Of a stretch of 54,968 bases of DNA, positions 12,175 through 39,902 are shown in pieces (within the stretch, counting starts at the first letter, position 1; the number at the start of each line of letters is the position of its first letter). The notes below the pieces were generated by a model. It searched no databases. It worked only from the letters and a program-made list of their open reading frames with translations, and was not told where the DNA came from. Location of the stretch: contig VMFZ01000007.1 in the NCBI GenBank assembly GCA_007376285.1, forward strand, positions 1 through 54,968, given 5' to 3'. The DNA comes from Parcubacteria group bacterium Gr01-1014_17. Its GTDB lineage: Bacteria; Patescibacteriota; Minisyncoccia; Phycocordibacterales; UBA10002. The position numbers were made by a program, and so were the translations under genes.

Positions 12175-15100
12175 TTACGCCAGCGCCTTCGCTTTTTCCG
12201 CCACCATACTGACAGTATTGTTGCGATTTGAGATGCGGCCTTTGAGCGCGACAAGCGCGTCGGGGGAGAAAAGTGCCTTGTGTTCGTTCCACACGCGCGG
12301 AAACACAACGACTTCAATTGTGCCGGAAAAGTCCGCAAGTTTCAGAAACGCCATAATCTCATTTTTCTTCGTAATAATCGTTTTCACTTCCTGCAAAATA
12401 CCCCCAACCACAACTACCATTCCTTCTTTATATTCTTCTTTTGCTCGCTGTATGTTGACCTCGCGTTTTTCCAAAACAGCGCGAAACTTGTCTAACGGAT
12501 GTCCGGAAATATAAAGCCCGAGCAGTTCTTTTTCCCACCCAAGCTTTTCTTCTTGAGTAGCGGGTGCCGCTTCGGCAATCCGCAGCCCCGCACTTGCCGG
12601 CAGGGCGCTAAAGAGGGAAACTCCGGAGTGCTCCGCGCTTTCTTTTCCGTACTGAAGCAGAAGTTCAATGTTCGCAAGCATTTGCCCGCGTTCGCCGAAT
12701 TCATCCATCGCCCCGCTTTTTATGAGCGCTTCCAACGCTTTCTTATTCAGATTGCGGTCTTTGACGCGCTCTAGAAAATGGGATAGATTTTTGAACGAAC
12801 CTTTCGCCGTGCGTTCCGCAATAATTGACTGCGCCACCCCCTCGCCGAAGTTTTTGATGGTCGTTAAACCAAAACGTATTTTATCCACTCCGACATCTTT
12901 CACCATCGTAAACCCGCTGAAACTCTCGTTAATAGATGGAGGTAAGACCAGAATATTCATCCGTTTGCAGTCCGCGACTGTCTCGCCGATTTTTTCCACA
13001 TCTCCGGAATCAGCAGTCAGCACCGCGGCCATATAAATAGCAGGAAAGTTCGCTTTCATATATGCGGTCTGGTACGCCACTTTTCCGTAGCTTGCCGCGT
13101 GCGCCTTGTTGAATCCGTACGCGGCAAAGGGCTCAATCAATCTCCACAATTGCTCTGCTTTTTCTTTTGTGGTTCCATTTTTAATAAATCCTTCAATCAA
13201 CTTCACCCGCTGCGCTTCCATTTCCGCCGGAATCTTCTTGCCCATTGCCTTGCGGAGCTTGTCCGCCTCAAGCCACGAGTAACCGCCGAGTGTAATGGCG
13301 GTCAAAAGCACATCATCTTGATAGGTAATCACACCGTACGAATCCGCCAGAATATCTTTGAGCCGAGGGTCGAGGTAGGTGATTAAGCGCGGATTGTGTT
13401 TGCGTTCAATGTACTGTGGAATCGTTTCCATAGGTCCAGGTCGGTAGAGCGCGACCATTGCGTTGATGTCAAGAATTGAAGTCGGCTTGAGTTCTTTCAA
13501 ATAGCGCGTCATTCCCGCACCGTTGAGTTGGAAGAGCCCTCCGGTCTCGCCGCGCGCGAGCATCTCAAATGTTTTCCTGTCATCAATCGGAATATTTTCT
13601 ATATCAATAGTAACGCCTTCCAGTTCCTTCGCTCGTGCAACCGCGTCCGCTAGAATAGAAAGATTTTTAATTCCGAGAAAGTCAAACTTGAGAAGTCCAG
13701 CTTCTTCTACCGCATACATATCGTACTGCGTTATGAGCTTGCCGCCTTTGGGATCTAGTTGGAGCGGTGCATAATCGGTCAATGGCGTTGGCGCAATCAC
13801 CACTCCCGCGGCATGCACGGAAATGTGCCGCGCACACCCCTCAATCTTTTTCGCCATATCTATAATTTGTTTCGTATCATCGTCGTCTTTGTAAAGTTTT
13901 GCGAGTTCTGGTACGAGTTCCAAAGCGCGTTCAATAGACATAGGGAATCCTTGCGAACCGAATGGAATGAGTTTTGCGATACGATCGCCGAGCGCATAGT
14001 CAAAGCCCATCGCGCGCGCCACATCGCGCACCGAACCGCGCGCCATCATAGTACCAAAGGTTCCAATTTGCGCGACTTTATCCGCGCCGTATTTTTGTTT
14101 CGCATATTCAATCATCTCGTCGCGCCGATTGTCGGCAAAATCCATATCGATATCGGGCGCGGATGGCCGCTCTGGGTTTAGAAACCGCTCAAACGGGAGC
14201 TTGTACTCAAGCGGGTTTACATTGGTGATGCCCGCAAGAAATGTGGAAAGCGAACCGGCGACCGAGCCGCGAATGGTTGTCAAAATCCCGCGCTCATGCG
14301 CAAAGCGTAGCAAATCCGCTACTACGAGAAAGTACGGCGCGTATCCTTTTCTTGCGATGATTTCAAGCTCGTACGCGACGCGTTTTTCCGTCTCCTGTGT
14401 TTTTTGGATATTTCGGCGCGCGTACCCAGCTTCCACTGTCTTGCGAAACGCTTCGTCTGGCGCAACACCACCAGTGTCAATGATGGGGAATACCCATGTG
14501 CCGAGCGTTAGTTCCAGATTGCATCGTTCCGCAATGCGAGCGGTTTCCGCGAGCGCCACTGGAATATGCGCAAAGCGGCGCACTGCTTCTTCTGCGGAAA
14601 CAAAAGAATAATCTTGATTACCTTCCACCTCGCGCTCTCCGAGAGCGCCTCCTGCGGAAACGAGTAGCATCGTATCGCGCGCGGGCTTGTCTTCTTGTTC
14701 AAGATAAAATACGGGCTCTACGGCAACGAGTGGAATCGCGAGCGTTGCTGACAGTTCCTGAATCATTGGCAGAAGCACTGCCGCGTCTGCAGTTGTTTTT
14801 TCGCTTCCAATACCGAGCCGCAGGCGCTCGGTTCCGAATATGCCAAGAAGGCGCACAAGAAACGCTTTTGCGCGCTCTTTGTCTTTTATGCGAAGCGCCG
14901 TTGCGACCTCGGATGCGCCGAAAGGTACGATTGCTATAAGCCCTCCGTTGTATTTTTCTAACAATTCAAAGTCAGCGCGCGGCTTGTAGTAAAACCCTTC
15001 CAAATGTGCGGCGGTGGAAAGTTTAATAAGGTTTTTGTAGCCGAGTTCGTTCTCGGCAAGGAGAATGAGGCGTGTCCGGCGGTTGTCTATTCCTCCGACT

Positions 15101-16484: not shown

Positions 16485-17399
16485 ATGGCAAACAGGCACC
16501 TTGGCAGATCAATAGCGCTTCAATCACTCTTTGAGTGGGATTTCCGCGCGCTTCCGGACAAAGCGCTTGCGGACATAGAATCGCGCAACACCGCAGAGTT
16601 TGCGCCGGGAATAGAAGAAAGCAACTCGTTCGTGCATACGCTCACCAGCGGCGTGCTCAAAAAACGCAAAGACATTGATAAAATTATCAGCAAAGCAGCG
16701 CCAGAGTGGCCGATTGAACGCATTTCATATTTAGACCGCAATGTACTCCGTCTAGGACTCTACGAGCTTCTATTTTCGGACCGCAAAGAAGTGCCAGCAA
16801 AAGTCGCGATTAACGAAGCGATAGAATTGGCGAAAACCTACGGCGGCGATGCGAGTGGTAGATTTGTAAACGGTGTGCTCGGCTCCGTGTATCGCGAGCT
16901 TGGCGAGCCGGGCAAAAACGAAGCGCCTAAGCGCGCGAAGCGCGCGGAAGTTCCGTATGAAAAAATGCTCATACAGAAGCTTGGCGGCGCGGTCGTATAT
17001 GCGAGAGACGGCGCCGACATCTATATAGCACTCGTGCACGACATTTTTGGGCACTGGACTTTGTCTAAGGGCAAAATCGGCGATACTCCAGAAATAGCCA
17101 ATGAGGGCGTTGAGACCGGAACTATTCGCGAAATTAAAGAAGAGCTTGGTTTGGATATCGCAATAAAAGAAGCAATCGGGTTCAACGAATATATCGCCTC
17201 CGACCCTGAAAAAGGAAAGATAAGGAAGCAAGTGCATTACTTCCTCGGTGAATCGGCGTTTGCGCCTCTCAAACTTGGAACATCGGGTGGTCTGGACGAT
17301 GCGCGTTGGTTTAAGTTGAAAGATATCGTGACCCTCAATTTTTACCAGGACACGCTCCCGATTGTAACGAAAGCGGTGAATATTTTACTAAAAAAGTAG
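16485..17399 (+). CDS. nusB: NusB fused to a C-terminal Nudix hydrolase domain
   Basis: DRNVLRLGLYEL, VAINEAIELAKTYG, FVNGVL; then WTLSKGK..REIKEELGL. Confidence 0.92.
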   Translation: MANRHLGRSIALQSLFEWDFRALPDKALADIESRNTAEFAPGIEESNSFVHTLTSGVLKKRKDIDKIISKAAPEWPIERISYLDRNVLRLGLYELLFSDRKEVPAKVAINEAIELAKTYGGDASGRFVNGVLGSVYRELGEPGKNEAPKRAKRAEVPYEKMLIQKLGGAVVYARDGADIYIALVHDIFGHWTLSKGKIGDTPEIANEGVETGTIREIKEELGLDIAIKEAIGFNEYIASDPEKGKIRKQVHYFLGESAFAPLKLGTSGGLDDARWFKLKDIVTLNFYQDTLPIVTKAVNILLKK

Positions 17400-17401
17400 C
17401 T

Positions 17402-18091
17402 ATGGATTTTGCAAATTTTGAAAAAAAGATTGGTATTGCGTTTAGCGATAAGGACCTGCTCCGTATCGCCTTTACGCACCGCTCGTATTTAAACGAGCAT
17501 CGCGGAACAAAAACCGAACACAACGAACGGCTGGAATTTTTGGGCGATGCGGTGCTTGAACTTTTGGTTACCGAATTCTTGTTTAAAAAATACCCGCACA
17601 AAGCCGAGGGCGATTTAACGATGTACCGCGCCGGACTTGTGAATGCCGTCACCCTTGCGGGCGTTGCCGAGAATCTCGGTATGAACGACTATATGCTCCT
17701 CTCGCGCGGCGAGGCGAAAGATACGGGCCGCGCGCGTGAGGTGATTCTCGCAAACGCGATTGAGGCGCTCATCGGCGCGCTTTACTTGGACGGCGGATAC
17801 GCGAAGGCGGGCGAGTTTGTATCGCGCTTTGTTTTGCCACTCACCGAAAACATTGTCGCGGAAGGGAAGTGGTTGGATGCAAAAAGCCATTTTCAAGAAA
17901 AAGCGCAAGACATTGCGGGTGTGACGCCCTCGTACGAAACCGTGCGCGAAACGGGGCCCGACCACGACAAGCATTTTACCATCGCAGTTTTCCTCGGCCG
18001 CGAAAAAGTGGCGGAAGGGAACGGGAAGTCAAAACAAGAGGCGGAACAAGCCGCCGCCGCGCAGGCACTCAAGGCCAAACAGTGGGGTTGA
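17402..18091 (+). CDS. rnc: Ribonuclease III
   Basis: THRSY, NERLEFLGDAVL, EALIGALYLD and a dsRBD with GPDHDKHF and KQEAEQ. Confidence 0.97.
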   Translation: MDFANFEKKIGIAFSDKDLLRIAFTHRSYLNEHRGTKTEHNERLEFLGDAVLELLVTEFLFKKYPHKAEGDLTMYRAGLVNAVTLAGVAENLGMNDYMLLSRGEAKDTGRAREVILANAIEALIGALYLDGGYAKAGEFVSRFVLPLTENIVAEGKWLDAKSHFQEKAQDIAGVTPSYETVRETGPDHDKHFTIAVFLGREKVAEGNGKSKQEAEQAAAAQALKAKQWG

Positions 18092-18116
18092 CACCACAGG
18101 CGATAGGTGCTATAAT
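18088..18116 (+). promoter_or_regulatory. Perfect sigma70 consensus promoter overlapping the rnc stop
   Basis: TTGACA-17 nt-TATAAT with an extended TG. Confidence 0.8.
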
Positions 18117-18183
18117 AGCCGTTACCAAGGCAATGGGAAAGCGCCTGCGCCTCGGTCGTTAGCTTTAATTCTCTTTGACATTT

Positions 18184-18627
18184 ATGATTGAAACTCTTGG
18201 AGGACTTTTGTTTTTTCTGTCTGTGTTTTACGGCAATACAGAGATTTCGTCAGCCGCGCCGACACCAATCGTGCCGGTTGCGGACAATCCGATTACGCTT
18301 GAACAATATGTCCGCGATTATTTCGCCGATAATGCAGTTCTTGCTGAAGTCGCGAAGTGCGAGTCCCGTTTTCGTCACTTTGACGCATACGGAGTACTCC
18401 GCGGCGATTACGACCGAAATGATGTTGGCGTGATGCAGATTAACGAGCGTTATCATTCGCCGCGCGCGGAAAGAAATGGGTTTGACATTAAAACCCTTGA
18501 AGGAAATCTCGGCTACGCAAAATGGCTTTACGACAAAGAAGGCCTTCAGCCATGGGCTTCGTCCGGCAAGTGCTGGAAAGGAGCTCAAACGCTCGCAGTG
18601 GTGAAAGACGCGAATCAGAAAAATTAA
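18184..18627 (+). CDS. Secreted lysozyme-fold/SLT-like transglycosylase
   Basis: Signal-like N-terminus, AKCES (catalytic Glu), GVMQIN, NLGYAKWLY, PW. Confidence 0.75.
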   Translation: MIETLGGLLFFLSVFYGNTEISSAAPTPIVPVADNPITLEQYVRDYFADNAVLAEVAKCESRFRHFDAYGVLRGDYDRNDVGVMQINERYHSPRAERNGFDIKTLEGNLGYAKWLYDKEGLQPWASSGKCWKGAQTLAVVKDANQKN

Positions 18628-18662
18628 AAGTTACTGAAAACTCCCAGAATAGCTGGGAGTTT

Positions 18663-19604
18663 TCATTTGAGTGGATGGAACTGTCGATGTGTTTTCTCAG
18701 CATAGCGGTCAGAGGCGTGCACATATCGCGTAGTCGTATGGAGCGACTCGTGGCCGAGGAGAATCTGGAGCGCGGCGGGGTTAGCGCCTTGCTCCGCCGA
18801 ATAGGTCGCAAACCCGTGCCGCAGGGAATGTGCGGAGGTTGGTATGTTGATGCCAAGCAGTTCTCTGTATTCTTTTATTTTCATTTGCAGATAATTTGCA
18901 GAAATACGAGCCTTTGTGTCGTCCGCGTTTTTTCCGCGATAGGGAATGAAGAGTGCCTGGTTTCCGTCGGCGCGCGTCTTCAGGTACTCCTTTATATGTT
19001 TCTGTGCGCGCTCCGTGAGATATACAAATCGTTCTTTCTTGCCCTTTCCACGGATAAATATTTTGCCCGATGCGTCAAGACGGTTGCGGTCGAGCGACAA
19101 TAGCTCCGAGATGCGCATACCGGTGGAAAAAAGCGTCTCCAACATTGTGCGGTTGCGTAGCGCGATGTTTTTATTGCGCTCAAACTTGGTCGGCGATTCA
19201 ATGAGGCGCACAAGTGCTTCAAACTCCGCAACGCGCGCATGCGTCCGCGGCATCTTGAGAAGCTTCAGTGCCTCCGGCGCAACTGGCGCATTGTAATCCA
19301 TATCAATAAGGTATGTGAGGTATCGCCGTACGCTAGAGAGTGCGCGATTCACCGAGCCGGCGGAGAGGCGCTTTTTAGAGTTGCGCGCGGCGGCGGTTTT
19401 GCGGTCGCGCGACACCAGATACGCTTTATATTGTTCCAGCGATTGTTTTTTTATTTTCTCAAAAGAAATTTTTAATTCGCGCGAAAGAAAGTCTGCAAAG
19501 GTTTTCAAGTCGCGCTCGTAATTGTAGAGCGTCTCGGGGGAGTAGTTGTTCGTTTGTATGAACAACAAAAATTCATCCGAATGGGGAAGGGACTGTTCTG
19601 TCAT
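18663..19604 (-). CDS. XerC/XerD-family tyrosine recombinase
   Basis: TGMRISEL, GKGKKER, HSLRH, LLGH, TTRY. Start could be 19604 or 19613. Confidence 0.92.
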   Translation of the reverse strand: MTEQSLPHSDEFLLFIQTNNYSPETLYNYERDLKTFADFLSRELKISFEKIKKQSLEQYKAYLVSRDRKTAAARNSKKRLSAGSVNRALSSVRRYLTYLIDMDYNAPVAPEALKLLKMPRTHARVAEFEALVRLIESPTKFERNKNIALRNRTMLETLFSTGMRISELLSLDRNRLDASGKIFIRGKGKKERFVYLTERAQKHIKEYLKTRADGNQALFIPYRGKNADDTKARISANYLQMKIKEYRELLGINIPTSAHSLRHGFATYSAEQGANPAALQILLGHESLHTTTRYVHASDRYAEKTHRQFHPLK

Positions 19605-19616
19605 AAAATACATTCT

Positions 19617-19657
19617 CTACTACTCAGTCCATTGCGCAGCAATGTACTGAGTAGTAG
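19617..19657. repeat. Palindrome immediately upstream of the xer gene
   Basis: ctactactcagt/actgagtagtag arms with an inner cattgc/gcaatg stem. Confidence 0.6.
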
Positions 19658-19700
19658 GGATATTATACTCATATTATAAAATCCCCGCCAGACCCACACA

Positions 19701-19742: not shown

Positions 19743-19940
19743 CTACTGCGCCGGCAGAATGTTTTTCACCGCGTTCCAAAGCTTTACCACAAGCCCCCAC
19801 GCATACGCTAAGTTGTCTCGTACTGATGGTGAACTTATAATGTCGCGCAGGTTGTATCCAAGATAGCCCAACACGACAAGCGCAATAACAATAAGAAGCA
19901 CCGCTTTTACCACTCCCCTATTTTCGTTTATTTTTTTCAT
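19743..19940 (-). CDS. 65-aa membrane protein with a prepilin-like N-terminus
   Basis: MKKINENRG followed by a hydrophobic helix and an amphipathic helix. Confidence 0.7.
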   Translation of the reverse strand: MKKINENRGVVKAVLLIVIALVVLGYLGYNLRDIISSPSVRDNLAYAWGLVVKLWNAVKNILPAQ

Positions 19941-19950
19941 ATATTAAAAA

Positions 19951-21243
19951 TCAAAACGAGCATACAAGTCGCGGACCTTCAAGAAGTTTTCTATATTTTT
20001 CTTTTTTCTCTGGAGAATAGAAATCAGGCCAGCAAACCGAATAGCGGTGCATGGCGTAGGAACCCTGTGCCGCGAGTTTGCCCTCTTCATTCATATTGTA
20101 AAGTCCGAAGTCCCAGTTCCCCGCCTGCGGCGTACCGGAGGTATAGCCAATGAGTTCTCCCGCCGCAAACTCAATAGTTTTTGTGGCAGGCGCGGTGCGG
20201 CTGTCGGCGATTTTCGGGGTTGCCGTAAATAATTCGTCTGTGAGCGAAGGAATAAGCTCGTCGGCGTGGTCAAACTTAAACTGGTAGCCGCAGCCCTCTT
20301 TCACGCGGAAAAACAAGAGATATTGAGCTGGGCTTTCGGGCGAGTCCTTCGTATAGGAACCGGAGTCATAGATACTCGCAATCGGCGCGTAAAGCGGCAT
20401 TCTCGCATGGACGGTATTGATGAATGAGTGTCCCTTCGGTCCTTCGTGCGACGGAGAACCAGGAGCCGTAATACTCTGAATCTTGGAAAAATCCGTGATG
20501 TCTGCGGTCAGCACGGGAGGCGCGGCTTCCGCGCATGCCTTCTTGGCGGCTACTTTTGCCGCGTCATTCTCCGCGGCTTTCGCCGCACGAGCAGCGTCCT
20601 CAATGTGGGGACTCAAGGCACGCACAATTTTGCGTAATCGTTCTATTTCGCTTTTTGCATACCCACCTGTCTCAAAAGAAACCAGGTCCCGAAGTACGCG
20701 GTCAGAATGTTGTTCTGGGAACATGGATCGGCTTTTCTGCGCTTCTTCAATCTCTCCTTTGACAGCGAGAAACTCATACTTACCTATCCCACTAGATTCA
20801 GAGGGTATTTTAGAATTTGCCGCATCAGTAATATGCGGACTTAAGCTTTGCACGATTTTTCGCAATCGTTCAATGTCAGCTTTTGCATAATTACCCGTCT
20901 CAAAGGCGGCAAGGTCGCGGAGAATACGATTTGAGTGCTCTTCTCCAAAACGAATTTCCCTCTTCTGTGCATCTTCAATTTCCTGCACCACTGCAGGCCA
21001 TGCGGAAGATGATTGCGTTTTTGATTGCATCTTTCTCGCAGGCGTTTTTTTCTTTGCTTCTTTTCTTGTAAAAGCTTTTTTGGTTGAAGAGGCGCGCGCC
21101 ACCGCCGCGCTTTCAGACGCGCTCCCCTCTCCTTGTGTGTTCGGTGGCGACCCGACTATCGCGCTTCCGAGCGCGAGCACCACAATCGCCAGTACCAAAA
21201 GCGCCGCAGGCGCAAATCCCCTATTTTCATTTATTTTTTTCAT
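19951..21243 (-). CDS. Exported protein with a prepilin-like leader, two ~60-aa repeats and a degenerate M23/LytM-like C-domain
   Basis: MKKINENRG-FAPAALL; repeat EIEdAQK..HS.R.LRDL..FETG.YAK..IERLRKIV..LSPHI occurs twice; KGHSF, FDHA, AGELIGYT. Confidence 0.7.
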   Translation of the reverse strand: MKKINENRGFAPAALLVLAIVVLALGSAIVGSPPNTQGEGSASESAAVARASSTKKAFTRKEAKKKTPARKMQSKTQSSSAWPAVVQEIEDAQKREIRFGEEHSNRILRDLAAFETGNYAKADIERLRKIVQSLSPHITDAANSKIPSESSGIGKYEFLAVKGEIEEAQKSRSMFPEQHSDRVLRDLVSFETGGYAKSEIERLRKIVRALSPHIEDAARAAKAAENDAAKVAAKKACAEAAPPVLTADITDFSKIQSITAPGSPSHEGPKGHSFINTVHARMPLYAPIASIYDSGSYTKDSPESPAQYLLFFRVKEGCGYQFKFDHADELIPSLTDELFTATPKIADSRTAPATKTIEFAAGELIGYTSGTPQAGNWDFGLYNMNEEGKLAAQGSYAMHRYSVCWPDFYSPEKKEKYRKLLEGPRLVCSF

Positions 21244-22703
21244 TAGGGTATTCTAAAGTTTTTGAACTGCCACGGGTCTTCCATATCTAACTCCTCCGGA
21301 AACAAACCATCGCGCCCTTTAAGCGGCGTCCAATCACTATATTCATCGTACATTTTGCCCATATAGGGCTCAATGATCTTCATAACACATTCAAAATCAA
21401 TATCATCCGCCTCTACGACACCACTCTGCGGATTCTTGATAGCCCATACCATTGCCCCGAGTACGCCCGCGGTTACCTGAAGGCCAGTAGCATTTTGGTA
21501 GGGGGCGAGCTTCCGCGCTTCGTCAATCGTGAGTTGCGAGCCATACCAGTACGCTCCTTTTTTATGCCCCATAAGAAGGACGCCAAGCTCGTCCATACCG
21601 CTTACTATTTCATCCAAAAGTATTTTTTGTTCATCTTGTAACTGGCGATTCTTGCCAAAGGCCTCCTCAAGCGACAAAACCGCCGCGTCACATGGTCGGT
21701 AGGCATAGTGAACGGTGGGCCGATAGACAACCACATCCCCTTCCCTGTGCGTTAAGAATTCTGAAATTGATATAGATTCATTGTGGGTAACAAGACGGCC
21801 TAAAAAGTTTTTTTGGAGCGGTGTCCATGTTTGCACGAAAGTAATAGCCCCCGGTCGCTCCATATAAATGGGAGATTGTCTTTCCTCCGAATGTTTTTTT
21901 GCTTCTTTCGGCCAGTGCTTTTCGTGTGTCCCCCACCCAAGCTCTGATGGTTGTGTGACTCCTTCAGCATGAAAACCATACACGGACCATGTATTTTCAA
22001 AACAGCCGATTTTCTTCGGTTTATCTGATTTCTGCGTGTCGTATTCGGCAATGTGAATGGTCTTGATATCTAAATCTTTGGCAAGTTTTGCCCACTCCTC
22101 GCGACTTTTCGGCGTCTCCACTTCGTGACCGGTGTCTTTCGCGACATTAAGAAGCGCTCTCTTGAGAAAATGAGAGATAATCCCCGGATTCGCGCCATGC
22201 GCAATCACTGCGGTCGGACTAGGGTTTGTAGGATTTTTAAGAGCAAGAGCCGTTTCTCTCAATCCGAAATTGGAGCGTTGTGTAAAAGTAAGGGTTGGGT
22301 CAACATATCCGCCAGTCCAAGGTTCAATGCAGGTATCTATATAAAGTGTCCCTCTATCTTGACAGAATTTGATGAGATTTACTGAAGAAACATCCACCGA
22401 GAGATTTACTAAAAAGCCCTTTTCTCCAAGAAGTGGTTCAAGTACCTTATGATAATTCTGCGGGTTGAGGGGTTCTACAACAAAGTGTACCCCTTCTTTT
22501 TTAGCAATTTCTTTTCCGCGGTCGTCTCCCGTAACAATCGTAATGTCTTTCTTGTCTACGCCGATATGTCGCAAGATAAGCGGCAGGACTCCTTGTCCTA
22601 TACTTCCAAAACCAACGAGCACAATCTTTTCTGGAAATTGTACATGTATTTTTTCCGGATGCGAGGTTTTGGAATGCGTTGTTGTATGTTTAGTTTCTGA
22701 CAT
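21243..22703 (-). CDS. hss: Homospermidine synthase
   Basis: VGFGSIGQG Rossmann motif, LVNLSVDV, YIDTCIEPW, HGANPG, SELGWG, HNESISI, PTVHYAY, GMDELGVLL, NATGLQV. Confidence 0.93.
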   Translation of the reverse strand: MSETKHTTTHSKTSHPEKIHVQFPEKIVLVGFGSIGQGVLPLILRHIGVDKKDITIVTGDDRGKEIAKKEGVHFVVEPLNPQNYHKVLEPLLGEKGFLVNLSVDVSSVNLIKFCQDRGTLYIDTCIEPWTGGYVDPTLTFTQRSNFGLRETALALKNPTNPSPTAVIAHGANPGIISHFLKRALLNVAKDTGHEVETPKSREEWAKLAKDLDIKTIHIAEYDTQKSDKPKKIGCFENTWSVYGFHAEGVTQPSELGWGTHEKHWPKEAKKHSEERQSPIYMERPGAITFVQTWTPLQKNFLGRLVTHNESISISEFLTHREGDVVVYRPTVHYAYRPCDAAVLSLEEAFGKNRQLQDEQKILLDEIVSGMDELGVLLMGHKKGAYWYGSQLTIDEARKLAPYQNATGLQVTAGVLGAMVWAIKNPQSGVVEADDIDFECVMKIIEPYMGKMYDEYSDWTPLKGRDGLFPEELDMEDPWQFKNFRIP

Positions 22704-22888
22704 ATTCTAAAATAATACCGCATTCGTTCGTATGTGTACATCGTGTACATGTAGATATCCCCGTCGATATATATATTATTTTAATTAATACTAGAATTAT
22801 ACCATACTCAAAAGTTGTGTTATGCACAGTAAAGAGTATTCTTGCCGTTAGATTGTTCTTAGAAAACTTGCTACGGAAAGATCATCAT

Positions 22889-24253
22889 ATGGATAAAAAT
22901 ACTGTGTTTGCCAAACTTGCATCTCGTACTCCCCTTTTTGACATTATGCCGATGGTGGCGAGGAAACGCATCATGGGAACCGAAAGCGAATATGGCGTAC
23001 AAAATACACTGCTCGGTGATAATCCGATTATCGCCTACGACCGGCTTCCAGCAATGCTTCAAAACGGTGGAGAGGTGTATGAGGATAGAGGGCATGTTGA
23101 ATATGCAAGCCCTGAAACCGCAAACATCGTTGCCGCTGTTGCATATTACGAAGCGGGAAAAGTGATTTGTCACAGAGAGCGATACTCACCCGAATTATAT
23201 TGCAACAATAACGACTGGTATGACAATACTTTCGGCGCACATGAGAATTACTTCACCTGCGCACAGCGCGCTGTCTGGCCTCGTTTGATTCCGTTTCTCA
23301 TTGCTCGCACAGTACTCTGCGGCGCAGGATGGGTCAACGAAAAAAGTCGTTTTGAAATCTCACAACGAGCTCATACGATATGTCAAGCTCAACATCCAGA
23401 TACCACGACGAATCGTCCGGTCTTGAATCTGCGCCCTGAATCGCTTGCGCGCGTGAAAGGTTTTGACCGCCTTCATCTTATTTGCGGCGATGCAACTATG
23501 TCGGAGGTTTCAACTTTTCTCCGTCTCGGCACAACAAGTTGCATATTAGAGATGTTAGAGCTCAATGCATTACCAGAAATTACCTATAACGAAACATATG
23601 CGCCTGCTGATATAAAGATGATCTCAAATCGCGAATGGCACTTGCGCGGCGTGACGAGCGGACCGCGTAGCGTGTTGGCTCTGCTCGCGCTGTATCTTGA
23701 GCGTGCGATAGAGCTCTTCTCTCACCGAGATGAGGTTACAGACGCGCTCTTGATTATCTGGGAAGACACCCTGCATAAACTTGAGAGCGATCACCAGAAG
23801 CTCTGGCGGAGGTTGGATTGGGCCACCAAGCTCTTTCTGTTGAATACCTTTGACGCAGTGGTGAATGACTCAACTGGGGATTGGGCGCGTGCGCAAGATA
23901 TGGCGTATCATTCGCTTAATCCTAAGGAAGGTCTCTACTACTACTTAGCGCAACAGGGGGAGATGGAGCGAATCGTTAGCGATGAACTGATTGTTCATGC
24001 AATGTATGAACCGCCTTCAGATACGCGCGCGTACGCGCGCGGAAAGACCGTGCAGTTGCTTGAAGAGCGTGGAGGAGAGCGCGTGCTCTGCGCCAACAGT
24101 TGGGACCATCTCTCTATTATTGATGTAGCCGCTAGCGGGTACAATCGCGTGATAAGAACGCCAAACCCGCGTCGCTACCTATCAATTCCTATGCCTGACC
24201 CGCGCGAAACCTACACGCATCTCGTGGAGAAAGTAAGAAAAGAATTAAGTTAA
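22889..24253 (+). CDS. Pup ligase/deamidase (PafA/Dop) family protein
   Basis: RIMGTESEYG, NGG.VY.D..H.EYASPE, NND..TFGAHENY, PFL..R..LCGAG, SQRA, RP.LN, RLHLICGD, DW..K, PP.DTRAYARG. Confidence 0.9.
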   Translation: MDKNTVFAKLASRTPLFDIMPMVARKRIMGTESEYGVQNTLLGDNPIIAYDRLPAMLQNGGEVYEDRGHVEYASPETANIVAAVAYYEAGKVICHRERYSPELYCNNNDWYDNTFGAHENYFTCAQRAVWPRLIPFLIARTVLCGAGWVNEKSRFEISQRAHTICQAQHPDTTTNRPVLNLRPESLARVKGFDRLHLICGDATMSEVSTFLRLGTTSCILEMLELNALPEITYNETYAPADIKMISNREWHLRGVTSGPRSVLALLALYLERAIELFSHRDEVTDALLIIWEDTLHKLESDHQKLWRRLDWATKLFLLNTFDAVVNDSTGDWARAQDMAYHSLNPKEGLYYYLAQQGEMERIVSDELIVHAMYEPPSDTRAYARGKTVQLLEERGGERVLCANSWDHLSIIDVAASGYNRVIRTPNPRRYLSIPMPDPRETYTHLVEKVRKELS

Positions 24254-24257
24254 AATA

Positions 24258-24290
24258 ACACCCGATGTCTGCAATTTAGACATCGGGTGT
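24258..24290. repeat. Palindromic repeat family B, ctgcaatttag-loop variant
   Basis: Sits between two convergent stop codons; the same loop occurs at 41514-41548. Confidence 0.85.
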
Positions 24291-24293
24291 CTC

Positions 24294-26726
24294 TTATGGT
24301 AGCTGCACCGTACTCGTCGCCACATTCCCCTCAAAACTCACATTGATGGCTTTGACAATTATTGCTCCAACTGCGGCGGACAAACCGGTACTGTTGTGTA
24401 TGAACGACACATTCTCCAGTGAAATGGGAGAGGAGTCGTAGTTGAGTCCGATGTCCATATAGCGGATGGTAGTATTCAAGAAGTCAGAGGTCGCATTGGG
24501 TTTCAGGTAGATGCCGGAAGGGTTCAAGGCAATCGGAGTGGTAGAGCCAGTGCCGTGAACATCGCTTCCGTCAGAGTCGTCTGCCCAGTTGGTGAAGATG
24601 ACTGGGTTTGATGGAGTTCCTTGCGCTTCCAGTCGTCCATATACCTCTAGAGAATAGCGGTCGGTCTTCCACACGCTCCCCGCTTCAGCAATAAGACCTG
24701 CTCCTGTGGGTATGGTAATCGTACTCGGGATGATGTAGGGGAAGGAGGTGTTCTTGGAGAAGGTAGAGGTAGCTCCGGCAGAGAGGAGGTTGCCTGAAGA
24801 GAGACGGACACCGTTCCATTGACCGTTGCTTGAACCAGAGTTGTTCTGTATTCTCCCGCTTCCAGAGAGTCCGCCTCCCCAGGTGAAAGCTCCACTGGTG
24901 TTGTTCGTAAAGGTATTACTGCTAATCGTACCCCTCGTGTCCCAGAAGTTCATACCGTAGGAGTTGTCGGTGATAGTGTTGCTGGAGATGGCGGGCGCTC
25001 CACCGCTCCCATAGATGCCGTAGGAGGGAGTGTCGGTGGTATGATAACGAATAGTATTACTGCTGACGGTAGAGGACGCGGTGTCTAGGTAGATACCGTA
25101 TGTCTTGCCGTATTCAATTATGGAGTTGCTGATTGTGGGAGAGGAGTTCGTAATGTAGATGTTTGCCTTCTGTTCTCCTCCGGAGAATTTGCCTCCATAG
25201 CGCACGGTACCGTATGAGAGCGTACCGGTACTGCCCGCGAGATACTGGATGCCGTACCAATCACCTGCTTGTGGTGAGGTATTCGAACCATCTCTGTTGA
25301 AATCACCACCATATGTATCATCAAAGTAGCTGGTAAAGATTGAGGGAGAAGATGCAGTTCCTGATGTTGTGAGATTGCCGTTCACCTTGATGCCTGCGGT
25401 ACTGAGGAACTTGATTACCGCGCCGGATTGGAGCGATAGCGTAGCTCCGTTCGCTACGGTGAACCATGCGTTGTCCACGAAGTACGGACTGCCGGTAGCG
25501 GTAAGAGTGAGGGTGCCTGAGGTAAGGTCGCTTCCGTAGTTCACGAGATAGTTGGCGTAGTTTCTGGCTCTCGGGGTCCCACGAATACTTCCCCCTGCTT
25601 GGTCTGTTCCGTTTTTGATGTTGTTGCGGTCTCCTCTATTGGCTGCCCAGCCGTCACTGGTGAGTCCAGATACATCTGGTGCCTTGCGCTCCATAGAGAG
25701 ATAGTTGCCTCCTCCCCCAATGCCGCACCAGCCGCCGCATGCAGAAAAGTCTAATTCATCTATCGTAGAAGTCGCGGTTCCAGAAAAGTACGACAGGTAA
25801 AGATGCTCGCCAGACATATCTCCTAGTCCTGAACCAAAACTCGTCCACAAGTCAGCTGTTACATTGGCGATGGGTGATTCACTCGCTTCGTTTGTTTCTC
25901 CGCTGTTCTTCCGTTCAATTAGGTAATATACGCCTGATGCAATGCTGCCAGACAGCTGAATGTAGGGCGCGCCATCTGCTGAGTAGAGCGTCCAGCCAGA
26001 GAGAGACACGGTATTACTTGTTTTGTTGTAGAGTTCAATCCATTCATCCTCCGAACCCGTCGCAGGTATGTCAGAACCGTACCAATATATTTCGTTGAGC
26101 ACAATGTCTCCTGCAGATGGAACATACGGAGTTGGTGTGGGGGCGGGGGCTGGTGCTGGACTTGCACTAGTGCTGCTTGTGGTGAGCGAAGTCGAACCAC
26201 CTCCTCCTCCACCGCCTCCACCACGAAACCCGTCTGGACCGATTGGAATCGGAAACGGGTCGTAGATGGGGTTGGTGGTTGGTTGAGATGGAGTCGGGGC
26301 AGTAACAATGGTCGGTGGCGCGGGAACAGTAAGAGGAAGCTGGACTGGCGCCGCCGCCTTTGGCGGCGGCGCAATTGCTGTCTTTGTTTTTTGTGGTACA
26401 ACTGTTACTTGCTCTGATATTCCAACATTCCTAGGAATGTTGGAAGGTAGAGATACTGGCTCCGGAACGATATTTACAAGCGCAATCGCAGCCCCAGCGA
26501 AAGTGTTGTCTATGACAATAGGCGTACTCTCAAAAATACTTGCGAACGCGCTCATGATTTTTGCTGCCGCAATTCCCCTTCCTGTCTCAACAACATTCGT
26601 ATTATGAATCTTCTCCACCTGCGTCTCCGTCTTATCTTGCTTCACAAAATATATCGCGAGCCCCACCACCAGTGCAATAAACGCAACCAGCACCACTCCC
26701 ACGCCCCACTTTAGTATTTTCAGCAT
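24294..26726 (-). CDS. Membrane-anchored surface protein: Pro/Gly linker, lamin-tail domain, right-handed beta-helix
   Basis: N-terminal TM; IVLNEIYW..DEWIELYNKT..VSLSGWTL (LTD); GDWYGI and ISNSII/ISSNTI repeats. Confidence 0.8.
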   Translation of the reverse strand: MLKILKWGVGVVLVAFIALVVGLAIYFVKQDKTETQVEKIHNTNVVETGRGIAAAKIMSAFASIFESTPIVIDNTFAGAAIALVNIVPEPVSLPSNIPRNVGISEQVTVVPQKTKTAIAPPPKAAAPVQLPLTVPAPPTIVTAPTPSQPTTNPIYDPFPIPIGPDGFRGGGGGGGGGSTSLTTSSTSASPAPAPAPTPTPYVPSAGDIVLNEIYWYGSDIPATGSEDEWIELYNKTSNTVSLSGWTLYSADGAPYIQLSGSIASGVYYLIERKNSGETNEASESPIANVTADLWTSFGSGLGDMSGEHLYLSYFSGTATSTIDELDFSACGGWCGIGGGGNYLSMERKAPDVSGLTSDGWAANRGDRNNIKNGTDQAGGSIRGTPRARNYANYLVNYGSDLTSGTLTLTATGSPYFVDNAWFTVANGATLSLQSGAVIKFLSTAGIKVNGNLTTSGTASSPSIFTSYFDDTYGGDFNRDGSNTSPQAGDWYGIQYLAGSTGTLSYGTVRYGGKFSGGEQKANIYITNSSPTISNSIIEYGKTYGIYLDTASSTVSSNTIRYHTTDTPSYGIYGSGGAPAISSNTITDNSYGMNFWDTRGTISSNTFTNNTSGAFTWGGGLSGSGRIQNNSGSSNGQWNGVRLSSGNLLSAGATSTFSKNTSFPYIIPSTITIPTGAGLIAEAGSVWKTDRYSLEVYGRLEAQGTPSNPVIFTNWADDSDGSDVHGTGSTTPIALNPSGIYLKPNATSDFLNTTIRYMDIGLNYDSSPISLENVSFIHNSTGLSAAVGAIIVKAINVSFEGNVATSTVQLP

Positions 26727-39863: not shown

Positions 39864-39902
39864 CCGCCCCCGATGTTGATGGGCTTCAAACATCGAGGGC
39901 GG
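39864..39902. repeat. Divergent family B palindrome
   Basis: ccgcccccgatgtt..aaacatcgagggcgg. Confidence 0.65.

Follow-up and report, generated by a model that had tools for sequence, protein, structure and literature searches.

What does a lone member of the Pup-ligase family do in a bacterium of the candidate phyla radiation (CPR), at a locus that carries no recognizable gene for a protein tag, an unfolding ATPase or a proteasome? The question is raised by a 54,968-nucleotide (nt) contig of Parcubacteria group bacterium Gr01-1014_17 (GCA_007376285.1, VMFZ01000007.1), the whole of which is referred to here as the window, and on which a gene for a PafA/Dop-family protein (hereafter the ligase gene) stands head-to-head with hss, a homospermidine synthase gene. 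Pupylation is regarded as an actinobacterial process with a counterpart, UBact, in a small number of further phyla, and both are tied to the proteasome. A preliminary description of the locus had proposed that the enzyme and hss form a polyamine-conjugation system, or that the enzyme acts on the Pup system of a host. Neither polyamine conjugation nor host manipulation is supported by the results reported here. The explanation that we consider best, with a probability of roughly 45%, is that the enzyme is a stand-alone, proteasome-independent PafA-type isopeptide ligase, the tag of which would be unlinked to the ligase gene or would escape recognition.

Family, fold and conservation of the enzyme

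The protein matches Pfam PF03136 (Pup_ligase) with an E-value of 1.6e-81 and 275 bits, against a cut-off of 25, over profile positions 71-440 of 441, and its matches in the PDB are Dop (4b0r, 9e-50, 173 bits) and PafA (4b0t, 5e-36, 128 bits). All motifs that had led to its being called a full-length family member are present, namely G30-x-E32-x-E34, D66, H69-V-E71, A73-S-P-E76 and H118-E-N-Y121, followed by R176-P-V-L-N180, R194-L-H196-L-I-C-G-D201 and P375-P-S-D-T-R-A-Y-A-R-G385. The long loop typical of Dop is missing, as had been noticed earlier: 15 residues lie between the GhExE and LQNGG strands, compared with about 70 in Dop. The AlphaFold2 model (pLDDT 92, pTM 0.93) superposes over its full length, including the C-terminal domain, on the Dop-Pup complex 7oyh (TM-score 0.81) and the PafA-Pup complex 4bjr (0.78). 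Over about 480 columns, TM-scores to Dop and PafA chains are 0.77-0.81, and both the glutamine-synthetase-like beta-sheet cradle and the family-specific C-terminal domain are present. The next folds, those of YbdK and glutamate-cysteine ligases, score no higher than 0.36-0.48. At the N-terminus, 25 conserved residues are modeled with confidence as a helix that packs against the rest of the protein, and the helical region forming the Pup groove is highly conserved (L-D310-W311-x-x-K314, W405).

Conservation extends across the orthologs. Fifteen residues (G30, E32, E34, H69, E71, P75, E76, H118, Q159, R160, R176, E184, R194, H196 and W405) are invariant in 37 of 37 sequences, D66 is kept in 35 and R182 in 36. 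In comparison with the syntenic relative L167 (loci other than the window are designated by L numbers), the proportion of nonsynonymous differences (pN) in the ligase gene is 0.14 and that of synonymous differences (pS) 0.73. Synonymous sites are saturated, so that no dN/dS was derived and only the fact that pN lies far below pS was used; the gene is therefore under purifying selection. At one position the alignment indicates that the constraint is relaxed or changed in the CPR clade: the equivalent of Dop R90, which is E62 in the window protein (around nt 23072-23074), is E in 24 of the 37 clade members, K in six, R in two and another residue in the rest. It is Arg in all aligned enzymes outside the CPR clade, with the exception of P0045 and P0050, 'ligase' paralogs from Dop loci. 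In Dop, R90 stacks on Y92 and forms a salt bridge to the ATP alpha-phosphate (PMC8599861).

A basal member of the clade, encoded at L089 (5899-7269), has a degenerate active site, with GIDGELG in place of GTESEYG, Y-L-E-L-S-H-F-L-E in place of Y-E-D-R-G-H-V-E and HCNY in place of HENY; this copy has probably lost its activity or been put to another use.

Phylogenetic position and related modules

Homologs sharing at least 42% identity with the window enzyme number about 40; all are metagenomic, and the named ones come from 'Candidatus Taylorbacteria', 'Patescibacteria group' or simply 'bacterium'. The clade appears to be CPR-specific. The whole family comprises 3724 members at E ≤ 1e-3 in a collection of 1.84 billion representatives clustered at 50% identity, about a dozen of which are full-length at 44% identity or more, and a set of 185,579 species representatives yielded only one clade locus, so that the clade must be called rare. 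Relatives already bear the name 'PafA2 family protein' in databases, and none was found in viral contigs. A literature search returned no paper on PafA/Dop-family enzymes from CPR or DPANN organisms; such papers may nevertheless exist.

In the PafA/Dop phylogeny, calculated by neighbor joining (NJ), 100 of 100 bootstraps recover the CPR clade as monophyletic, and the branches nearest to it hold enzymes of DPANN-type contigs that are either ligase-position or orphan. A second group of next-nearest sequences consists of the two paralogs of UBact clusters. Several of the DPANN-type contigs carry modules (Table 1), no description of which was found in the literature search, with the gene order AAA+OB ATPase, long Dop-like enzyme (610-670 amino acids, aa), open reading frame (ORF) of 40-58 aa, and then between one and three ligases of lesser length. 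The product of the small ORF resembles Pup in its C-terminal half, as in ..LLDGVEDLVSKDNLADNYKQSSAQ and ..LLEGIDALVSNKKLAENYTQQGGQ, and the C-terminus of this tag is GGQ or, unusually, SAQ. It is with the shorter, ligase-position enzymes of these modules that the CPR clade groups. P0045 (L170/L171), labeled Nanoarchaeota, is an orphan like the members of the CPR clade. At the CPR loci, which number 14 including the window, the ligase paralog is the only one seen.

Search for partner genes

The enzyme had been described as an orphan, and we found it intact in the window, and without partner genes both there and at the 13 other clade loci. Searches of the 55 kb at the level of ORFs, hidden Markov models (HMMs), tblastn and Pfam gave no pup or UBact gene, no mpa/arc ATPase gene and no proteasome gene, in agreement with the preliminary description. 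There is no credible ORF ending in G[EQ] in the window, and none of its intergenic ORFs ending in E or Q is conserved or Pup-like. HMMs for UBact (built from 116 harvested sequences), Pup and the DPANN-type Pup-like tags, run against six-frame ORFs of the window and the 13 related loci, gave best E-values of about 3-4. When Mpa, PrcA, PrcB and the accessory proteins of six reference loci were used as tblastn queries, the only match in the window was the ligase gene itself, and neither tblastn nor Pfam revealed an Mpa/ARC AAA ATPase or 20S PrcA/PrcB there. A profile search with the four DPANN-type Pup-like tags in a collection of 5.8 billion proteins yielded only three matches and is uninformative on CPR. 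An all-against-all comparison of the 14 clade loci detected no conserved neighbor except a DUF2914 gene in three mutually related loci.

Two small proteins were considered as tags and rejected. The 65-aa protein encoded near the window ligase gene ends in ..LPAQ, its counterpart in L167 ends in ..LLPTK, and it has an N-terminal membrane helix; a 146-aa ORF ending in ..GLLE upstream of the L169 ligase gene is confined to that locus. The DUF2914 genes encode membrane proteins and lie 0.1-4 kb upstream of the ligase gene (L001 3896-4996, L003 6833-7903 and L165 7629-8714); the one in L165 is directly divergent from the ligase gene, and none is found near the ligase gene of the window.

Ligase or hydrolase

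Residue positions separating Dop from PafA were established by Hecht et al. (2020) (PMC7947786), who reported that loss of the Dop loop, combined with changes near the catalytic Asp and in the 'alpha-loop', turns the hydrolase into a ligase, and that the loop is dispensable in vitro, yet its loss favors ligase activity. At these positions the CPR clade departs from Dop. The sequence near the catalytic Asp is x-G-H, compared with H-A/T-H in Dop; in the motif EY-A-[ST]PE, the site of Dop Ser101 (Ala in PafA) is Ala in 26 of 37 members and Cys in nine; Dop His95 is replaced by R, C or M (position 67); the DFFE motif of the Dop alpha-loop is absent; and the site of Dop H231 is occupied by Leu, as in UBact enzymes in the PafA position. 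A pair of HMMs for Dop and ligase, trained solely by where the genes lie with respect to the tag, placed the Dop-position enzymes of DPANN-type modules 31 to 159 bits toward Dop and their ligase-position enzymes between -32 and +7, with a median of +0.5 for the CPR clade and -3.7 for the window protein; on this scale, the CPR clade scores like ligase-position enzymes. The PPxDTRAY tail, which had been called Dop-like, is indeed present, but it is shared with ligase-position enzymes of DPANN-type modules and is therefore no indicator of Dop function.

Several observations weigh against assigning the enzyme to the PafA-type ligases. Its deep placement relative to Dop and PafA is unstable in the NJ analysis, in which 5 of 100 bootstraps supported the predefined Dop group and 33 the wider group of CPR and DPANN ligases; because of this instability the ligase call rests on the discriminating residues and on gene position. 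The clade lacks the Val insertion that follows the catalytic Asp in PafA (L-D-V-G-S), reading YEDR-GH instead, and it also lacks the PafA helix residues H-I-W-E (H188/W190/E191) and Asp439, position 404 being variable. Its alpha-loop (AHTICQAQHPD), modeled as a short helix and a strand, is unlike those of Dop and PafA. Among PafA-specific features, only Ala73 (PafA Ala72) and the missing Dop loop agree. Scores against the NCBIfam equivalogs fall far below the cut-offs for both PafA (TIGR03686, 190 versus 551) and Dop (TIGR03688, 227 versus 492). Judged by these comparisons, the protein is a member of the Pup-ligase superfamily that fails the equivalog and defining-residue tests for PafA and Dop alike, and at the level of the gene system its locus does not qualify as a Pup/UBact-proteasome locus either. 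The relaxed Arg position points to altered nucleotide or substrate handling, and the failure of the tag models and of the neighborhood comparison to reveal a partner belongs on the same side of the balance.

A lineage-specific indel carrying hss

To judge from the similarity of its product to characterized enzymes, the hss of the window is a genuine bacterial homospermidine synthase gene: residues 24-483 match the solved homospermidine synthase 4plp, and both saccharopine-dehydrogenase-type domains (PF03435 and PF16653) are present. Its coupling to the next gene, exp430, by a 1-nt overlap was confirmed, base 21243 being common to both. The product of exp430 has an N-terminal hydrophobic anchor and belongs to no Pfam family, and it is plausible as an exported protein; its two internal repeats follow the pattern ..EIE[DE]AQK...H[SD][ND]R[IV]LRDL..FETG.YAK..IERLRKIV..LSPHI.DAA. 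No homolog of it occurs in any locus compared. Among the PADLOC defense models, the ligase matches none, and the match of exp430 to JetC reflects weak coiled-coil similarity.

The closest syntenic relatives of the window locus are L167 and L168, which encode an enzyme (P0004) about 75-76% identical to the window ligase. The window and L167 share NusB-NUDIX, RNase III, a 150-aa gene, an XerC/D-type recombinase gene and a small membrane-protein gene, with 82% nucleotide identity over 3.1 kb. L167 3776-3974 aligns to window 19743-19941 (blastn, 76% identity), and L167 3981-5457 to window 22795-24258 (blastn and alignment). L167 thus runs from the small membrane-protein gene directly into the ligase gene, with hss and exp430 absent, and window positions 19942-22794 are therefore a lineage-specific indel of 2.85 kb, most likely an insertion. 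The spacer between hss and the ligase gene is itself composite: positions 22795-22888 are homologous to the region upstream of the L167 ligase gene, and positions 22704-22794, found only in the window, arrived with hss. The first 45 nt of exp430 and of the 65-aa gene are 80% identical, both encoding MKKINENRG followed by a hydrophobic helix, and this repeat is consistent with local rearrangement at the site of the indel.

The proposal of a polyamine-conjugation system drew on the adjacency of hss and the ligase gene, and the adjacency does not recur. In addition to its absence from L167/L168, hss occurs at none of the 13 other clade loci; tblastn found no copy of hss or exp430 in 164 Pup-ligase loci, a set without the CPR loci L165-L169, and the gene tables of these later-added loci contain no Sacchrp_dh-family gene. 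Homologs of homospermidine synthase are common in CPR genomes (Kaiserbacteria and Paceibacterota are among the names of the matches), and the three nearest copies of hss, 94, 84 and 82% identical, have ABC/FtsX, cupredoxin, methyltransferase or dUTPase genes as neighbors, with no homolog of the ligase or of exp430 nearby. DNA similarity to the 94% identical copy (90% nucleotide identity) is confined to the hss ORF (21244-22666). Across CPR relatives, hss and pafA therefore show no linkage, an outcome that the preliminary description had itself named as counting against its proposal, and the adjacency in the window most likely carries no functional meaning and results from insertion.

Two further observations concern these loci. 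Divergence from L167 is much greater in the ligase gene (76% aa identity; pS 0.73, saturated) than in the housekeeping genes next to it at 16485-19613 (89-93% aa identity, pS 0.51-0.56), which suggests allele replacement or faster evolution at the locus. At L001 and L002, a distant member of the saccharopine-dehydrogenase family is encoded (12334-13494 and 12272-13432, respectively) at a distance of 1.7 kb from another clade ligase gene, on the opposite strand and with four genes in between. Its best PDB match is carboxyspermidine dehydrogenase (1.9e-23), and its score of 63 bits compares with an NCBIfam cut-off of 800; its proximity to the ligase gene is weak and probably due to chance.

Organization of the locus

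The coordinates of the features are given in Table 1. All ligase orthologs begin with 'MD....L..L.S..PLF' in the alignment, and the start of the ligase gene is therefore placed at 22889 (protein P0001, 454 aa), which fixes the divergent spacer at 185 nt, the distance estimated in the preliminary description.

Table 1. Positions of the features of the window and of the related DPANN-type modules
Feature	Sequence	Position	Strand	Remarks
PafA/Dop-family (Pup_ligase) gene	Window	22889-24253	+	454 aa; PF03136; open frame from 22817
Divergent spacer between ligase gene and hss	Window	22704-22888		185 nt; head-to-head genes
hss, bacterial-type homospermidine synthase	Window	21243-22703	-	PDB 4plp, 2e-157; Sacchrp_dh_NADP and Sacchrp_dh_C domains
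exp430, 430-aa protein	Window	19951-21243	-	N-terminal hydrophobic anchor; two internal repeats of about 60 aa
65-aa membrane-anchored protein gene	Window	19743-19940	-	Kept beside ligase gene in L167/L168
Indel segment (exp430, hss and 91 nt)	Window	19942-22794		2.85 kb; no counterpart in L167/L168
45-nt direct repeat, copy 1	Window	19896-19940	-	5' end of 65-aa gene (MKKINENRG...); repeat search; 80% identity to copy 2
45-nt direct repeat, copy 2	Window	21199-21243	-	5' end of exp430 (MKKINENRG...); repeat search
Terminator-like hairpin, 14-bp stem	Window	24257-24291		Between convergent ligase gene and 810-aa LTD/beta-helix gene
Inverted repeat, 22-nt arms, 3-nt loop	Window	19614-19660		Arms 91% complementary; between 3' end of 65-aa gene and start of XerC/D-type recombinase gene
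Pup-like module	L038	8051-18343		Woesearchaeota label; also two proteasome-subunit genes
Pup-like module	L090	6165-11353		Unlabeled contig
Pup-like module	L172	2319-8811		Unlabeled contig
Pup-like module	L174	2530-8863		Unlabeled contig

The remainder of the window consists of ordinary CPR-type housekeeping genes (Pfam analysis of 38 window ORFs), including those for LeuRS and several other tRNA synthetases, GyrB, DnaE, NusB, RNase III, MurG, FtsW, MraY, DnaK/DnaJ, RpoA and ribosomal proteins. Promoter-like and terminator matches, including the promoter-like ones of the divergent spacer, were no commoner than in shuffled sequence, except for the hairpin at 24257-24291. The inverted repeat is probably the terminator of the gene string formed by hss, exp430 and the small gene.

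Convergent with the ligase gene is a gene for an 810-aa protein (24294-26726, minus strand) with a lamin-tail domain (LTD) and a right-handed beta-helix; this arrangement is kept in L169 (3633-6047), not in L167. GC-rich hairpins at window 24257-24291, window 39866-39895 and L167 5467-5496 share the core CCCGATGT...ACATCGGG. In L167, the 30 nt directly 3' of the ligase gene match at 100% identity not the hairpin of the window ligase gene but window 39866-39895, a segment upstream of an M20 peptidase gene.

Alternative explanations

We hypothesize that the enzyme works as a stand-alone isopeptide ligase in the following way. Mg-ATP would be bound on the beta-sheet cradle (E32, E34, H69, E71, H118, R182, R194 and H196), a peptide or small protein would be held in the helical groove, and the gamma-carboxyl of its C-terminal Glu would be phosphorylated; D66 would then aid acyl transfer to a lysine amine. 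The product would be a proteasome-independent isopeptide tag, and the tag itself may be encoded elsewhere or may not be recognizably Pup- or UBact-like. Family, fold, residue conservation, clade structure, the lack of Dop features and of linked partners, and the indel are shown by the comparisons above; the ligase rather than hydrolase direction, the peptide substrate and the existence of an unlinked tag are inferred. A different account is that the enzyme is an ATP-dependent carboxylate-amine ligase with a changed substrate, a small molecule or a non-Pup peptide, acting for instance by gamma-glutamylation of an amine or by ligation to free Glu. The absence of every partner at 14 loci, the alpha-loop unique to the clade and the relaxation, mostly to Glu, of the otherwise family-wide Arg that contacts the alpha-phosphate all favor such a change, and small-molecule ligases do exist in the superfamily, YbdK and the glutamate-cysteine ligases among them. 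We nevertheless regard it as unlikely, given that the PafA/Dop C-terminal domain and the Pup-groove helices are kept and highly conserved and that the model matches Pup complexes with a TM-score of about 0.8. Homospermidine or another polyamine as the specific substrate is a much poorer candidate. The neighboring hss and the saccharopine-dehydrogenase-family gene at L001/L002 speak for it, yet neither the syntenic relative nor any other clade locus has hss, its nearest homologs never stand beside a ligase gene, the L001 gene falls far short of its family cut-off and is separated from the ligase gene by strand and distance, and, on a rough estimate, two chance neighbors in 14 loci are unsurprising. 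A broader version, also unlikely, places the CPR clade as a PafA/Dop-family enzyme outside the Pup world, in which groove and cradle have been kept, the Arg has become Glu or Lys, and a gamma-glutamyl or isopeptide modification of some other kind is made, with an amine or some unrelated small protein or peptide as a conceivable substrate. If true, it would mean new post-translational or metabolite-conjugation chemistry in ultra-small symbionts.

An enzyme of the Dop type, that is, a deamidase or isopeptidase that uses ADP and phosphate to remove or process a gamma-glutamyl-linked tag or amide, would explain why the window protein is slightly nearer to Dop than to actinobacterial PafA in bits, TM-score and NCBIfam score alike, why the PafA Val insertion is missing, and why a Dop-like proline in xPE and the PPxDTRAY tail are present; the modeled alpha-loop, which is not a long helix, fits as well. 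This explanation is improbable, since the Dop loop, His95, Ser101 and DFFE are all absent, the clade behaves like ligase-position enzymes in the position-trained HMMs, the xPE proline and the tail are common to ligase-position enzymes of UBact and DPANN-type modules, and a depupylase in a cell with neither ligase nor tag would be left without a substrate. An episymbiotic way of life is common among CPR bacteria, and this circumstance, together with the lack of a tag gene nearby, is what could recommend the idea of an enzyme delivered to an actinobacterial host, or acting on proteins of its Pup system. The protein, though, has no signal peptide or hydrophobic N-terminus, no secretion-system gene is a conserved neighbor, and its nearest relatives are DPANN-type rather than actinobacterial enzymes, so that action on a host is highly improbable. 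That the gene is a decaying remnant with no current function is hardly credible: the loss of partners, the relaxed Arg and the stronger divergence from L167 than that of neighboring genes would agree with decay, but the enzyme is intact in 37 sequences down to 42% identity, its catalytic residues are invariant, pN is far below pS, and the single degenerate member, L089, shows what decay looks like.

A conserved family member, catalytically intact by its sequence, kept alone in reduced CPR genomes and most closely related to enzymes of Pup-like modules, suggests that tagging by the PafA/Dop family is wider and more modular than described, and that it may be used independently of the proteasome in organisms with minimal proteostasis machinery. 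The window protein offers a concrete enzyme for expression and testing, and the orphan clade as a whole merits biochemistry. If the polyamine link is, as seems most likely, an accident of a recent insertion, effort on that line of work can be spared.

Comparison with known systems

Compared with PafA (4b0t, 4bjr; TIGR03686), the window enzyme has the same fold and C-terminal domain, GhExE, the catalytic Asp, HENY and RLHxxxGD, the Dop loop is absent from both, and Ala occupies the site of Dop Ser101. It differs in that identity is 26-27%, the Val insertion, H-I-W-E and Asp439 are found only in PafA, the equivalent of R90 is not kept as Arg in the CPR clade, and no pup, mpa, dop or proteasome gene lies near the ligase gene. 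Dop (4b0r, 7oyh; TIGR03688) is the best match in sequence (32% identity) and structure (TM-score 0.81), and it shares the xPE after the catalytic strand and the PPxDTRAYxRG tail, whereas the loop of about 40 residues with its conserved Trp, His95, Ser101, DFFE and H231 are features of Dop that the window ligase lacks.

Outside this pair, PuuA (gamma-glutamyl-polyamine synthetase) and YbdK/GCS2 carry out ATP-dependent carboxylate-amine ligation, the same superfamily chemistry according to Iyer et al. (2008) as cited in PMC7947786. They lack the PafA/Dop C-terminal domain and groove, and their folds are remote (TM-score 0.36-0.48); no result of this analysis shows a polyamine substrate. The single-copy Dop/PafA homologs of Planctomycetes provide a precedent for a lone family member per genome outside Actinobacteria, but their sequences align in part with the Dop loop, and they served as an outgroup (PMC7947786).

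The clusters of UBact and proteasome genes in Nitrospirota, Latescibacterota, Armatimonadota and Poribacteria encode two paralogs, both 33-38% identical to the window enzyme, and their PafA-position enzymes share x-G-H-x-EYA[ST]PE and EPL with the CPR clade. These clusters include a tag gene, which was found at none of the CPR loci searched: the great majority of UBact-type loci yielded a UBact gene ending in ..YRQR[ST]G[EQ], usually no more than about 2 kb away from the ligase homolog, with Mpa and PrcAB alongside where checked. The DPANN-type modules at L090, L172, L174 and L038 likewise differ in having an ATPase, a long Dop-like enzyme and a tag, and their enzymes retain Arg at the position where the CPR clade has relaxed it. 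Their resemblance to the window enzyme extends to 38-43% identity for L090 and L172 (tblastn), with 33% for P0045, and to a common length class, the N-terminal extension and the GAHENYFT and DTRAY motifs.

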